Below are positions 3,883 to 48,733 of a stretch of DNA of 64,000 bases, piece after piece. The stretch is from Trueperaceae bacterium (GTDB lineage: Bacteria; Deinococcota; Deinococci; Deinococcales; Trueperaceae). The DNA lies in the NCBI GenBank assembly GCA_965213925.1, contig OZ243927.1, forward strand, positions 3,456,001-3,520,000, written 5' to 3'. Position 1 is the stretch's first letter, and each line of letters starts with the position of its first letter. The position numbers and the translations under genes were made by a program. The notes under the pieces were generated by a model that was not told where the DNA came from, did not search any database, and saw only the letters and a list, made by a program, of their open reading frames with translations.

Positions 3883-4512
3883 GTGTTAAGCTCCCTCAAG
3901 ACTTTGCTGAGAGGGCACGGTTTGACTCCCGCTGACACTGACCTCGCGCTTCTTCGTAGCGCCTTTGAGCGCTTCGTCCCCCTATCAGACGAGGTATGGG
4001 CGGAGGTCAACACGCTGTGGCACGTCCGTAAGGTTGAGCGCAGCACTACCCTCACGAGAGTGGGCGAGACGGAGCAATCGTTCGGACTCGTCCTCGAGGG
4101 CGTGCAGCGCCTCTACTTCACCACGCTTGACGGCGCTGACGTCACCGTCGCCTTTGCCTACCCCCCGAACTACACGGGCGTCCCCGACTCATTCTTTCTC
4201 CAAGCGCCCTCTGCTTATGCGCTCGAAGCGCTTACTGACGGGCGCATGCTTTGGATTGATTACGCAAGCTTGATGTGGCTCATGGACCGGCACCGCGAAC
4301 TCGAGCGCTGGGCCTGGCGGCTCCTTGCTGCCGCCGGAGCGGGCCGGGGCAAACGCGAACGCGAAGCCCTCACGCTCTCAGCAGAGGAGCGCTACGCCCG
4401 CCTCCTCCGTGAGTCGCCCCACCTACCTGACCTTGTCGCACAACACCACTTGGCCTCGTACCTCGGCATGACCCCGGAGACGCTGAGCCGCATCCGCGCC
4501 CGCTTACGCTGA
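3883..4512 (+). CDS. Crp/Fnr-family regulator (start uncertain)
   Basis: cNMP-binding-like domain plus LASYLGMTPETLSRIR HTH. Confidence 0.88.
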   Translation: MLSSLKTLLRGHGLTPADTDLALLRSAFERFVPLSDEVWAEVNTLWHVRKVERSTTLTRVGETEQSFGLVLEGVQRLYFTTLDGADVTVAFAYPPNYTGVPDSFFLQAPSAYALEALTDGRMLWIDYASLMWLMDRHRELERWAWRLLAAAGAGRGKREREALTLSAEERYARLLRESPHLPDLVAQHHLASYLGMTPETLSRIRARLR

Positions 4513-17753: not shown

Positions 17754-18300
17754 TACGCTGGTTGGCACAAAACGTGGCGCTAGGCGATTTTCTTTGCTCC
17801 AAACAGCCTTGGTTGCTCAAAATGACTTAGAGAAAATAAGCTCGGAAGGGGCAAGGCGGCGCGCATCTCGGTAAACGACCGTTTTTGCAATCTGTTCAGC
17901 GTCTGGCTGTGACTGGTTAAACCACCTACGCTCATTGCAACCGAGTTTCACTGTCAGATTTATCGTCTAATTCTATCCACAGGGCAGGTCGAATACCGCC
18001 ACTATCTTTAGGTCTGCCATAGACACCATCGCCACGAACATAAATACGTCCGTATCTATTTACACTGGCAGCAGTGCGACCATAATAGCCTGGTGAGCGA
18101 AGTCGCCACCAATAGAATTTACTTTATCTTCTTTAGTGACCCCGACGGCAACAGTTAGGCAGTGCAGCAAATCTCGAGCCGCAGTTGAACGAGGTAATTT
18201 TTATACGTGTGAACAGGCCGAGGCGTGCGTAAGTCTTCTGCGTGTGGTCGGGTAGCAGGAGACCGTCACTGGCCTCCCGCCCCTAAGAGCCGTGCGTGCG

Positions 18301-20736
18301 GTAGGGTAGGATGCCAGCGAGCTGCCTATCAAAGATAGCGCTTTTCCAACATCCCCCCTCCGAACCCCGCATGACCGCTTTCCGTGTCACGGGGCTCTCC
18401 AGTAATCTCAACATGAAAGTCCTTTCCCGTGGTAGTGCCCTTTATGGATGTCTTGGTGGCAGGTGAGGCAGACCACCAGCGTCTTGCGTCGGCGAGCCGA
18501 CATCCTTTGCATCCATTCGGGCCGTGACTTACGCCCTCTTTGTTCAAGGTCTGCCAGTTTTCGGACGTGATGCACTTCGACGTGCTCCACCGACCCACAA
18601 AGCTCACAGCTTTGCGCTAAAAGGCGGTCCACCACTTCATTACGCCCGTTCCAAATCTTACTGTTCTGGTTGTCGTCCAAGGCTACCCATTTGTTCCACC
18701 GTAACGGGATGCCGCCAAAGTGGGTGATGAGTGGCTTCTTTTTAGGACCACGGTCCACTTTGACTTGAAGGACTTTATAGCTGCCCTCCTTGAGGTCGAT
18801 GGTGGTGCGGTAGCGCCGATAGATTTTCTGGCAACTCGTCCTGAACTTATTCGCCAGCGTTTTCACTAGCGAGAGTTCTGTGACGCGCTTGAGTCGGCCC
18901 AGCGTGTGGAGGTTGTAGGCCATGCGGTAATACTGCACGACCCCGCGGTATTCCGCTTGATATTGGCTGACGATGCTGTAAGCATCGCTGCTGAGCCTTT
19001 GTGGGAGGTGAATGGGCTTGCCGCGTCGCATGTACTTGGCGCAGTGCGCTTTCATGACGTGCGACGGTACCCGGAGTCCGACGCTGCCGTTGATGCAGCG
19101 TTGTCCCCGGTGGTCGTGTTTATCGTCAGCGTGAAGAATGTGGACCTCATAGCCCAGGAAACGCGCTTTCTGCGTGCGCGCGTGGGTCAGCAGGGTCTTA
19201 TCCTCGCTAAGCTCAAGCTTGAGTTCGTCGCGTAAGAAGGCGGCAATCTCTTGCTTGATAGCCACGGCCTCGTCTTTTGGCCCTTTCAGCCCCAGCAGAA
19301 AGTCATCGGCATACCTTTGGTACCACAATCGCCGGAAGTTCGGGTCATCGGGGTCGCGCGACGGCATTGTCTGGGCCTGCTGGCTCAGTTGCCGCGCGGT
19401 CTCCCAGTTCCCTGCTTTCCGAGCGTCGTGAGCGGCTTTGGCGATGGCGACATACGGGGGGTAGGTCTTGCGGCGTTCGCCGCGTGTGTAAGCTGGTATC
19501 AGTTCGTGCTCGACAAACTTGTCCAGCCTGTCCAGAACCAGGTTGGTGAGGATTGGACCGACAATCGACCCTTGCGGCACACCGCTGTAGGTCTGGTGAA
19601 AGGTCCAGTTCTCCAGGTAGCCAGCTTCGAGCAGCCCCTTGATAAGCCGCAGGAAGCGGTTGTCGTGGAAGCTCTTCTGCAAGATGTTCAACAAGACATC
19701 GAAGTTAATCTTGTCGAAACACGAGCAGATATCTCCCTCGATAAACCACTTTGTACCTCGACCCTCTTGGGTGACTTTGCGCAAAGCTGTGTGGCATCCC
19801 CGTTTCGGTCGAAAGCCGTGAGAACGGTCGCTGAACCGCGGTTCATAATAGGCTTCCAGGATGGAGCGGATAACTTCTTGAAGAAGTTTGTCCGACCAGG
19901 AAGGCATCCCTAGAGGCCGCATCTTGCCATTCTTTTTGGGAATGTAACGGCGTCGTACCGGCGTCCACCGATACCGCTCTTGGCGTAGCGCCTCGATGAT
20001 GGTATCAATTTTCGCTAGGGACATCCCGTCCACGGTTTCGTCCGAGGCACCTGGTGTCAGTGCGCCTTCGTTCTTGTAGAGCTTGGCGTAGGCGCGCAGG
20101 TAGAGGTCAGGCCGGTAGAGTAGGCGATACACCCTTTTAACCGGCAGGCCACGCTGGCCGCGTTCACGTAGGATGGTGAGTACCGTTTCGGCGGTTCGCA
20201 TCTCGCGTACCTCACAGTTCCTTTCCATCATGATTACCTGGTCTCCTTCGCCCTGCGAACGGCTCTCCCGCTCTCCCTGGTGGGGCGTGACGCCCACGAC
20301 TACTACGAGACCTCCGTTACCTTAGGACTCGCGTCCCTTAGGCAATCCCGTGTTTCGTCACTGAGGAACGTGCTAGAACGACTTAGGCTCGCCACTCATA
20401 GCCTTGGATGAACTCATTGTTCATCGCCCATCAAGCAGAGCGTCATTTGGACGAAACTTGAATCCAAATGTCCTGATGGCGTCGGTGTACAGACGTGCTA
20501 CCGACGGGTGTGCGTGACCACCGCTGGCTATTGGCGTTCAAACAATCCAGTCTTAGCCTTATCATTCAGGCGTTGCAGAGCCGCATCGTACACGTCTTCC
20601 TTTGCGCTCCGCTTTAATGCCATGCTCTTGTCCCCTCCCTCCTTTCGAGCTCAGGTTAGGCATCCGCCTCGGGGTCGTTTGCCCTGAACCCCGGCCAACT
20701 CCGTTGGCAATTCACTCAATGCGCACCACGGCGCAC
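18301..20736 (-). mobile_element. Inner group II intron (IIA, mitochondrial-like/Ll.LtrB type), apparently intact
   Basis: 5' GTGCGCCGTG at 20736; DV GAGCCCCGTGACACGGAAAGCGGTCATGCGGGGTTC; 3' ...CCTACCCTAC at 18301. Confidence 0.9.
18408..20201 (-). CDS. ltrA: Group II intron reverse transcriptase/maturase with HNH endonuclease
   Basis: IPKKNGKMRPLG, HGFRP, GVPQGS, RYADD, C-terminal CELC..EVHH..CLTCH. Confidence 0.95.
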   Translation of the reverse strand: MRTAETVLTILRERGQRGLPVKRVYRLLYRPDLYLRAYAKLYKNEGALTPGASDETVDGMSLAKIDTIIEALRQERYRWTPVRRRYIPKKNGKMRPLGMPSWSDKLLQEVIRSILEAYYEPRFSDRSHGFRPKRGCHTALRKVTQEGRGTKWFIEGDICSCFDKINFDVLLNILQKSFHDNRFLRLIKGLLEAGYLENWTFHQTYSGVPQGSIVGPILTNLVLDRLDKFVEHELIPAYTRGERRKTYPPYVAIAKAAHDARKAGNWETARQLSQQAQTMPSRDPDDPNFRRLWYQRYADDFLLGLKGPKDEAVAIKQEIAAFLRDELKLELSEDKTLLTHARTQKARFLGYEVHILHADDKHDHRGQRCINGSVGLRVPSHVMKAHCAKYMRRGKPIHLPQRLSSDAYSIVSQYQAEYRGVVQYYRMAYNLHTLGRLKRVTELSLVKTLANKFRTSCQKIYRRYRTTIDLKEGSYKVLQVKVDRGPKKKPLITHFGGIPLRWNKWVALDDNQNSKIWNGRNEVVDRLLAQSCELCGSVEHVEVHHVRKLADLEQRGRKSRPEWMQRMSARRRKTLVVCLTCHQDIHKGHYHGKGLSC

Positions 20737-20771
20737 ACTTTCACCGCACACGGCTCAAGCCAATCACGAAG

Positions 20772-20906
20772 CTACCGCGATAAGCTCGTAGTAGCCCTGA
20801 AGATTCGCCCTCTCAGATTGCGAACCCGCCAATTGACAGCTCGCCAGTTCACAGCGTGCCAGTCCGTAGGTCCTTCGGTTTCGTTTGCAGAGCTTCGGGC
20901 TCGCAT
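20772..20906 (-). pseudogene. 44-codon N-terminal stub of the outer intron RT (RVT_N-like)
   Basis: MRARSSANETEGPTDWHAVNWRAVNWRVRNLRGRIFRA..*, ending just before DV. Confidence 0.7.
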
Positions 20907-21639
20907 CTAACTTCCCCTTAGTTGGCAACCTTCAGAACATCTCTCTAGGAGATTGACCAGTCCCACGTCAGCACCCTTTCGGGTTGAGTATCGGCTCTAT
21001 CTAGCCCCTTATGATTTCGGGTCGCCTTTCGGCGGCTAGCCTTCGCTTCTTGGGACCTCCTATGCCCGCTGGAGCGTTCGGCGTTCCTTACGGTTCGCTT
21101 ACCTGCAACAGGACTCCAACGGGGTTTCCGTGTTCCACTTGTGTGAGCTGCGACCGGGTTAGGCGTGCTCTCTACTCCGGGGTCATGGTGTCCTCGTGCA
21201 GAACGCGCGTACTCTCTGCACCTGTTGAGGCGAGATACCTTATCCTTAGCCTCGACCCGACCATGCCTTATCAACCATCCTTCGACAAACCGAACTAACG
21301 GAGCTTTGACCGAGCATTCACGTTCGTTCGCCTTACCGGTCTTTCCCTCACCCGAGTCTCTACGATGGTTTAGATTCTCTTAGGCTTTACCTCCAGCTTC
21401 ACACCTTGCCATTACTGGCAACGCATGTGGAAGTCGGGAATGAGCCTGGACACTGGCTCAGAGTTCTTTTCCTCCTTCCTAACTCACTCACTTCAAGCGA
21501 CTTCACGTCGCACACGCGCGCGTTAGTCGCAGCAGGATAGAGATTCTAAATGTCCGGAGAGCAACCCCTTTCCAAAAGAAAAGCCGTAGAAAATATCGAA
21601 CAAAGCTGAGCTTCAACGCGCCTTAGAAATCGGAAAACT

Positions 21640-48659: not shown

Positions 48660-48733
48660 TGAGCGATGGTGGATTTGAACCACCGACCTCGTCGTTATCA
48701 GCGACGCGCTCTAACCAACTGAGCTAATCGCTC
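48660..48733 (-). tRNA. tRNA-Ile(GAT), CCA not encoded
   Basis: GAGCGATTAGCTCAGTTGGTTAGAGCGCGTCGCT-GAT-AACGACGAGGTCGGTGGTTCAAATCCACCATCGCTCA. Confidence 0.95.

Follow-up and report, generated by a model that had tools for sequence, protein, structure and literature searches.

A group II intron inside domain V of another group II intron, and relatives that occupy the same site

The nested introns

This account concerns a 64,000-nucleotide (nt) stretch of DNA from a Trueperaceae bacterium ("the window": contig OZ243927.1 of GenBank assembly GCA_965213925.1, positions 3,456,001 to 3,520,000 of the forward strand, numbered here from the first letter of the stretch). Its minus strand carries a twintron: a complete group II intron lies inside domain V (DV) of another group II intron that has no gene of its own. 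DV forms the catalytic centre of all group II introns and corresponds to U6 of the spliceosome. The exons of the outer intron are intergenic, situated between an alpha/beta-hydrolase gene and a 2OG-Fe dioxygenase gene on the other strand; the parts of the twintron are listed in Table 1. Loci that carry related elements, or that serve for comparison, are referred to by number (L001 and so on).

The inner intron begins with GTGCGCC at 20736 and ends with CCTACCCTAC (...CTAC) at 18301, that is, with the GUGYG and AY termini of a group II intron. Its 607-residue protein has a YADD motif in its translation and is matched in Pfam by RVT_1 (4e-34), Intron_maturas2 (1e-10) and AI2M-like_HNH (8e-14), with no GIIM-type match instead; its best match in the PDB is LtrA (5g2x_C, E 9e-116, residues 31-597), and the next match stands at 6e-35. 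The first-pass annotation of this DNA had called the intron IIA. Judged by its protein, the assignment to IIA, and to the mitochondrial-like (ML) lineage, is supported, because LtrA is the best match over the full length and because Intron_maturas2 and the AI2M-like HNH domain accompany it; the Rfam D1-D4 models gave no match to the inner intron at E up to 10. To go by its sequence, the intron is complete and probably still mobile.

Is the hairpin that it interrupts really a DV? Rfam was run on contiguous stretches cut exactly at the ends of the inner intron, with base-pair terms not scored across the break. The 5' piece (20758-20737) matches positions 1-22 of the Intron_gpII model (21.7 bits, E 0.011, cut at the 3' end) and the 3' piece (18300-18247) matches positions 23-77 (13.5 bits, E 1.1, cut at the 5' end). 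Neither piece alone reaches the 40-bit cut-off; the two truncated matches abut at model positions 22|23, with neither gap nor overlap. The halves make all 14 pairs of the canonical DV register with each other, and the joined 34-nt hairpin folds at -21.1 kcal/mol, compared with -9.8 +/- 2.5 for shuffled sequences, none of 500 of which folds as low; as a control on chance, 2 of 50,000 random junctions are DV-like with the same geometry. Both DV/DVI pieces also align end to end with the intact, uninterrupted DV and domain VI (DVI) of L056, a homologue of the outer intron on Rhizobium ruizarguesonis plasmid CP140857.1 (71% identity over 400 nt). Taking the inner intron out restores the DV of the outer intron, which is the mark of a twintron. 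The first-pass annotation had claimed just this split, with the inner intron at 20736-18301; its coordinates were all recovered, and the outer sequence does score as a DV, in two abutting halves that match the intact DV of L056.

The outer element has, besides its DV and DVI, the GUGYG start and a domain I, the latter recognized by the Rfam model group-II-D1D4-7 at 21461-21376 (39 bits, cut-off 34); the outer intron at L025 gives the same match. Its 3' terminus, ...CTACCCGAC, is also the ending of L056. In a blastn comparison, positions 82-202, 323-721 and 751-775 of the outer intron match L056 at 2284-2405, 2501-2899 and 4472-4496, and the match reaches 110 nt into the annotated coding sequence of ltrA (start at L056 2789); the gap that follows in the match shows that about 1.5 kb of the reverse transcriptase (RT) open reading frame (ORF) of the outer intron is deleted. 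The outer intron is itself without an ORF and, since a second RT gene is absent from the window, it lacks a cognate RT anywhere in these 64 kb. The protein encoded by L056 matches chain C of PDB entry 6me0 (E 2.5e-117), which we take to be the T.el4h IIB intron. The IIB type that the first-pass annotation had given to the outer intron is thus supported by homology of the L056 protein only.

Table 1. Parts of the twintron in the window, with the evidence that placed them
Feature	Position	Strand	Evidence
Whole twintron: outer intron with inner intron nested in its DV	18247..21513	minus	
Outer intron, 5' segment: domains I-IV (ORF deleted) and 5' DV half, 777 nt	20737..21513	minus	
Outer intron, 5' end (GTGCGAC)	21513	minus	Alignment to L025 outer intron and L056
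Remnant of the lost RT gene of the outer intron, first ~110 nt (approximate limits)	20793..20903	minus	Computed from L056 coordinates
Outer DV, 5' half, 20 nt: lower-helix strand (AGC triad), upper-helix strand, GAAA loop, 2 nt	20737..20756	minus	
Inner intron, IIA/ML type, complete, 2436 nt	20736..18301	minus	Both ends aligned to relatives
Candidate exon-binding site 2 (EBS2), CGCACAC, intron positions 223-229	20514-20508	minus	
Exon-binding site 1 (EBS1) hairpin: stem 20470-20464 / 20450-20444, 13-nt loop 20463-20451	20444..20470	minus	
EBS1, AGTTTC	20458-20453	minus	
Protein encoded by the inner intron, 607 amino acids, uninterrupted	18408..20231	minus	
Inner intron, own DV and DVI	18301..18399	minus	Full-length Rfam Intron_gpII match, 46.0 bits (cut-off 40)
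Outer DV, 3' half, 14 nt	18287..18300	minus	Rfam truncated match begins exactly at 18300; L056 alignment
Outer DVI and 3' splice site	18247..18286	minus	Rfam truncated match to model position 77; L056 DVI alignment
Outer intron, 3' end	18247	minus	Rfam truncated match and alignment to L056

Relatives at the same site

A scan of the genome_contigs collection with the inner protein permits a glance at the prevalence of this arrangement. It yielded 55 loci of 61-85% identity over the best segment; the protein of the closest relative found is only 76-77% identical to that of the inner intron. Intron ends in the relatives were placed by blastn with the ends of the window's intron, and 42 of the 55 loci, together with the window, make up 43 elements with at least one readable flank. 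Flanks were read by rule: on the 5' side a triad, its spacing, a GNRA-like loop and 2-3 nt; on the 3' side the pattern of the DV 3' strand. The 5' half of a DV was found in 26 of 31 flanks, the 3' half in 34 of 38, and at least one half in 38 of the 43 elements; among 100,000 random positions 2.6% pass the 5' rule, which is loose, and 0.7% the 3' rule. A count by eye puts 37 of the 43 in a DV and four elsewhere (L027, L028, L035, L044), with two doubtful (L029, L045). Rule and eye part company over L044, which passes the rule and is judged false, and over L033 and L023, which fail the 5' rule and are judged true (in L023 the boundary had been placed 2 nt off). The suspicion, raised on the window alone, of an intron that parasitises other introns is thus borne out across the lineage: most of its readable close RT homologues lie in a DV.

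Insertion falls 2 nt past the GNRA tetraloop: positions -6 to -3 read G, A, A and A in 24, 27, 24 and 26, respectively, of 27 DV flanks. A strict test of joined flanks, which requires the triad, no fewer than 8 of the 9 lower pairs and an unbroken run of 3 or more upper pairs, is passed by 13 of 23, as against 2 of 50,000 random junctions. (A technical note: this triad-anchored test replaces a free-register hairpin detector, which was dropped for its odd registers and its random rate of 165 in 20,000.) The hosts belong to at least seven phyla (Cyanobacteriota, Pseudomonadota, Chloroflexota, Planctomycetota, Bacteroidota, Acidobacteriota and Thermodesulfobacteriota), to which plasmids of Bacillota and Actinomycetota are to be added.

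The sequences that surround the inner introns at these loci encode intron proteins of their own. Group II RT or maturase domains were recognized in 14 of the 17 upstream ORFs tested; in 13 of those 14, no more than about 100 nt separate the end of the ORF from the DV half. Several architectures occur among them: RVT_N+RVT_1+GIIM, either with or without HNH, and in one case (L021) an ML type, where a member of the lineage sits inside the DV of a related ML intron. In the Pirellulaceae targets, L031 and L032, the outer DV has a CGC triad. The targets of the DV lineage would include IIB-type introns, CGC-triad introns and even ML introns. A metagenome-assembled genome (MAG) of Chamaesiphon holds four inner copies (L007-L010) that are 100% identical over their first 500 nt; the outer sequence, compared over 365 nt upstream, is 47-62% identical, which is background (the median of all pairs is 51%). 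The same is true of L002/L003 and of L031/L032. Identical inner copies in unrelated outer flanks of one genome speak for recent separate insertions and against the spread of a composite unit.

Some side observations on these outer introns can be added. At L010:5894-5960 the 3' half of the outer DV is followed, after 13 nt, by TGTGCGG in place of a DVI. A third intron beginning there was considered and set aside: there is no intron signal or RT ORF downstream, and truncation of the outer intron is more likely. An intron of a different type (Rfam DV/DVI 57-59 bits; ending CCCTACTCTAT) lies in the outer RT gene at L004:1-330 and L006:1-260, inserted in the same place in both, directly before the sequence coding for the SPLLAN motif (RT block 4); these insertions look like a second intron-homing specialisation, in outer introns that also bear the DV insert. 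L004:1-4621 as a whole is nested to several levels: the outermost RT gene appears to be interrupted by an intron whose DV is intact (1165-1241), the RT gene of this middle intron is split by the SPLLAN-site intron, and the outermost DV holds the DV-homing intron.

Distant relatives and the origin of the habit

A search of the plasmid database PLSDB with the inner protein returned 800 records, in which identity falls from about 52% straight to about 40%. Nine plasmid records from the 52-64% band were examined. DV flanks occur in four of these nine, on both sides of the intron in Microvirga and Priestia and on the 3' side in Salmonella and Streptomyces. Two ML relatives of 52-55% protein identity, L061 (Calothrix plasmid AP018293.1) and L064 (Nostoc plasmid NZ_CP151100.1), sit inside the RT gene of another intron at the motif ELDIEKC|FD, with RT fragments annotated on both sides. 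L057 (Megaera plasmid CP113870.1) is inserted, like L028, which is also from Rickettsiales, in an HU-family gene at the sequence coding for the conserved GRNP motif; the pair looks like a retargeting to a housekeeping gene. The remaining two records are inserted elsewhere. Farther out, in the 36-40% identity band, none of seven remote ML introns has a DV flank; these lie in conjugation genes.

A protein tree of 45 rows, rooted on the seven remote ML introns (a quick search, with long branches flagged), gathers all 29 DV-inserted rows in one clade (SH-like approximate likelihood ratio test, SH-aLRT, 92). The non-DV rows with readable flanks, L027, L028 and L057, are nested within this clade, and the RT-motif pair, L061 and L064, branches just outside it. 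A single origin of DV homing, followed by later escapes, is the simplest reading of the tree, if not a proven one.

One of the plasmid loci has unusual surroundings: in the Microvirga plasmid (L058:881-3520) a tRNA gene (881-953) lies some 50 nt ahead of the 5' DV half, and the outer DVI is followed by a sequence resembling the 3' end of a tRNA. The outer "intron" there may be a mere DV/DVI fragment beside an integration site.

The fit between intron and target

The first-pass annotation had also described how the inner intron might recognize its site. The EBS1 hairpin is where it had been placed and shows the pairing that had been proposed for it (6 of 7, once an adjacent U.G pair is counted as the one wobble), while its loop, given as 11 nt, has 13. 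The proposed EBS2, said to be complementary to the DV stem, proves to be the exact complement of target positions -15 to -9, forming seven Watson-Crick pairs; its RNAduplex energy in the window, -13.0 kcal/mol, is the best among 26 elements. The 5' half of the outer DV doubles as the intron-binding sites (IBS2 and IBS1) of the inner intron.

Across the relatives EBS tracks IBS; that is, the two covary. In 27 elements EBS1 pairs on average at 5.19 of 6 positions of its own IBS1, as opposed to 4.59 for swapped targets, a result that none of 10,000 permutations equalled. Pairing of delta, the base just 5' of EBS1, with +1 is seen in 15 of 23 elements, which 172 of 10,000 permutations matched. The EBS2 duplex energy averages -7.75 with own targets vs -6.95 with swapped ones (115 of 5000 permutations as good). 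These permutations ignore shared ancestry and consequently overstate significance. The informative cases are those in which intron and target have changed together: CC with GG (L019), and CGTCTC with GAGACG (L031/L032). In L027, a relative outside DV, EBS1 pairs at 6 of 6 positions with its new site. Pairs 3-7 of the EBS1 hairpin stem are kept in 21-22 of 22 distinct sequences, by several types of pair. Mismatches at -2 and -1 are common among the elements, as is to be expected because an element of this kind must accept many different DV upper stems. Outside the RNA-paired part, the most conserved target positions are -20 to -17 (GAGC), +3, +4, +6, +9, +11 and +13.

A proposed route into domain V, and what speaks against it

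The explanation that we consider very likely is that a complete IIA/ML intron has retrohomed into the DNA for DV of a resident IIB-type intron, and that it belongs to a sub-lineage of DV-homing introns. EBS1 would pair with the GAAA tetraloop and the next two bases (-6 to -1), EBS2 with the 5' strand of the DV stem, and delta with +1. If LtrA-type introns are a guide, the lariat would reverse-splice into the top strand between -1 and +1 and the HNH domain would nick the bottom strand, leading to target-primed reverse transcription; also by analogy with LtrA, one may guess that the protein contacts the flanking lower stem, at the GAGC of -20 to -17 and over +3 to +13. In the transcript, the inner intron would splice first and religate the DV halves, and only then would the outer ribozyme fold. 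The outer ribozyme is expected to be inactive until the inner intron has been removed, because its DV is broken 2 nt past the loop, but it is possible that a three-way junction still works with the inner intron in place.

A wider proposition is offered tentatively, as possible rather than probable: that the inner intron represents a large and old ML/IIA sub-lineage whose natural homing site is the universally conserved DV of other introns, hyperparasites of the ribozyme core and a possible brake on the spread of group II introns, given to occasional escapes (into the HU gene, into RT motifs), and that this specialisation is undescribed in the searchable literature. DV would serve as a homing site wherever introns exist, because no other part of a group II intron is as conserved as these 34 nt.

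A number of observations weigh against the retrohoming explanation. Of the 43 elements, six by eye and five by rule are outside DV or doubtful; 10 of the 23 joined flanks fail the strict hairpin test, mostly through 1-2 upper-helix mismatches. In L008 and L018 the 5' and 3' halves come from different DVs and their lower stems are unpaired, the consequence either of recombination between copies of the inner intron or of a chimeric MAG assembly. The copy in the window does not fit its own site perfectly: EBS1 pairs with IBS1 (GAAAGT) at 5 of 6 positions, with a mismatch at -2, and delta is unpaired with +1. Across the lineage the support for EBS2 is weak, and the permutation values for all three pairings are inflated, as already stated. 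Finally, if the outer intron is a dead relic, as it may be, sequential splicing would be without consequence here.

Could the association with DV instead be an inheritance from a single ancient accidental insertion, whose product, a composite twintron, then travelled as one piece, with the inner intron borne along by the outer? Related outer flanks do exist at some loci (73-78% identical among L001, L006, L011 and L015; 69% between L002 and L003). However, a history of this kind does not lead one to expect identical inner copies in flanks of background identity within one genome, nor outer RTs of differing architecture and one outer intron with a different catalytic triad; the diversity of the outer RTs and the flank identities suggest, rather, that inner and outer phylogenies are incongruent. 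There is also a mechanical objection: an outer intron whose DV is split should neither splice nor move with the inner intron in place, and once the inner intron has been removed by splicing, it is absent from the outer RNA. Inheritance as a unit is accordingly regarded as extremely improbable. A different proposal accepts the homing but assigns base pairing a minor part, the target being recognized mainly as a DNA hairpin in the manner of IIC introns at terminator and attC stem-loops. The target is indeed an imperfect palindrome; the insertion keeps a fixed distance of 2 nt to the loop in 24 or more of 27 flanks; the loop is just what EBS1 pairs with, and it would be single-stranded if the hairpin were extruded; and EBS2 covaries weakly, with mismatches at -2 and -1 tolerated. 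Yet the protein is LtrA-like and has an endonuclease domain, unlike the endonuclease-less proteins of IIC introns, there is covariation between the target and both EBS1 and delta, the candidate EBS2 would bind a single strand of the stem, so that a hairpin would need to be melted, and relatives at sites that are not hairpins (L027, and L028 and L057 in the HU gene) keep the same architecture. Taken together, these points make recognition chiefly by shape quite unlikely.

It may also be asked whether the copy in the window is a fossil, with both introns inactive and their nesting devoid of present function. Its condition offers some grounds for saying so: the outer RT gene is lost and is not replaced by another within the 64 kb, the twintron is intergenic and lies beside a broken ORF remnant, EBS1 and delta are mismatched to the site, and the closest relative found is as distant as noted above. 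A consensus promoter scan found no promoter-like site upstream on the minus strand, which is weak evidence since other promoter types are outside the scan. Against this stand an uninterrupted ORF of 607 codons with all of its domains present, and a DV/DVI and an EBS hairpin of the inner intron that are intact. An inactive fossil appears somewhat unlikely on this showing, though it is a chance worth keeping in mind. For the lineage, homing into DV by way of RNA pairing is the reading that we prefer.

Known systems and significance

Ll.LtrB, the IIA (ML) intron of Lactococcus lactis whose protein is LtrA, resembles the inner intron in having a homologous protein with RT, X/maturase and HNH domains, and EBS1, EBS2 and delta in its RNA, of which EBS2 and delta are candidates in the inner intron. 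The retrohoming mechanism of Ll.LtrB is established, and by analogy the same would be expected of the inner intron. The two differ in where they live: Ll.LtrB and the remote ML introns sampled sit in conjugation genes (relaxase, coupling protein), whereas the present lineage targets a ribozyme core. As for a twintron built on DV, in the chloroplast psbF gene of Euglena, reportedly described by Copertino and Hallick in 1991, an internal intron is said to interrupt the external DV and to be obliged to splice first. That twintron is organellar, degenerate, ORF-less and restricted to a single site, and is not a mobile lineage with an RT of its own.

Homing into the YADD motif of the RT genes of other introns characterises a lineage that includes M.a.I5, UA.I3, P.l.I2 and B.th.I3 (PMC2504315; reviewed in PMC4424553), and M. 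acetivorans twintrons are known (PMC4424553). Like the present lineage, the YADD-homing introns have specialised in a conserved sequence found in other retroelements, with twintrons as the outcome; they differ in being described as B-like, without endonuclease, and directed at a protein-coding target (PMC2504315), whereas here an ML/IIA intron with an HNH domain is directed at a catalytic RNA hairpin. The two characteristics of the M.a.I5 type, an RT active site as target and no endonuclease, are thus both absent from the inner intron: its target is DV and HNH is present. In Thermosynechococcus elongatus, TeI3 is found in TeI4, again an intron at a conserved site of another mobile intron, and identical inner copies in diverged outer copies have been read there as recent independent insertions; the insertion, however, is in domain IV, between two start codons, and both introns are closely related and of IIB type, the inner one being ORF-less (PMC2882425). 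Trichodesmium Tery_4732 is likewise a bacterial group II twintron, one for which sequential splicing has been shown in vivo; it differs in that its inner intron is in domain I, at a single locus in a protein-coding gene (PMC4649490). No report of a bacterial DV-homing lineage was found in the full-text literature searched, and older intron literature or an intron database may already describe one; the introduction of a 2025 paper on specialised lineages names none (PMC12584367).

What is gained by such an address? For a lineage directed at DV, every genome that already has introns contains a target. The insertion should cost the cell almost nothing, but the resident intron would become dependent on the invader for its splicing and its mobility. 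One can think of this as a second, RNA-level form of intron-on-intron parasitism, beside homing into RT genes. It helps to explain the nested intron piles of cyanobacteria, provides a natural case in which to study ribozyme folding controlled by ordered splicing, and suggests that a targetron-like tool could be directed against group II introns. If the wider proposition is true, the lineage could act as a natural brake on the spread of group II introns. The copy in the window is a well-preserved specimen; the interest lies in the lineage.

Neighbouring features

Just downstream of the twintron, at 17932-18090 of the minus strand, a short reading frame ends in ...GIRPALWIELDDKSDSETRLQ followed by a stop codon, with further in-frame stops ahead of it; it looks like the tail of a broken gene. 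Elsewhere in the window, at 48660-48733 of the same strand, there is a tRNA gene (74.2 bits).

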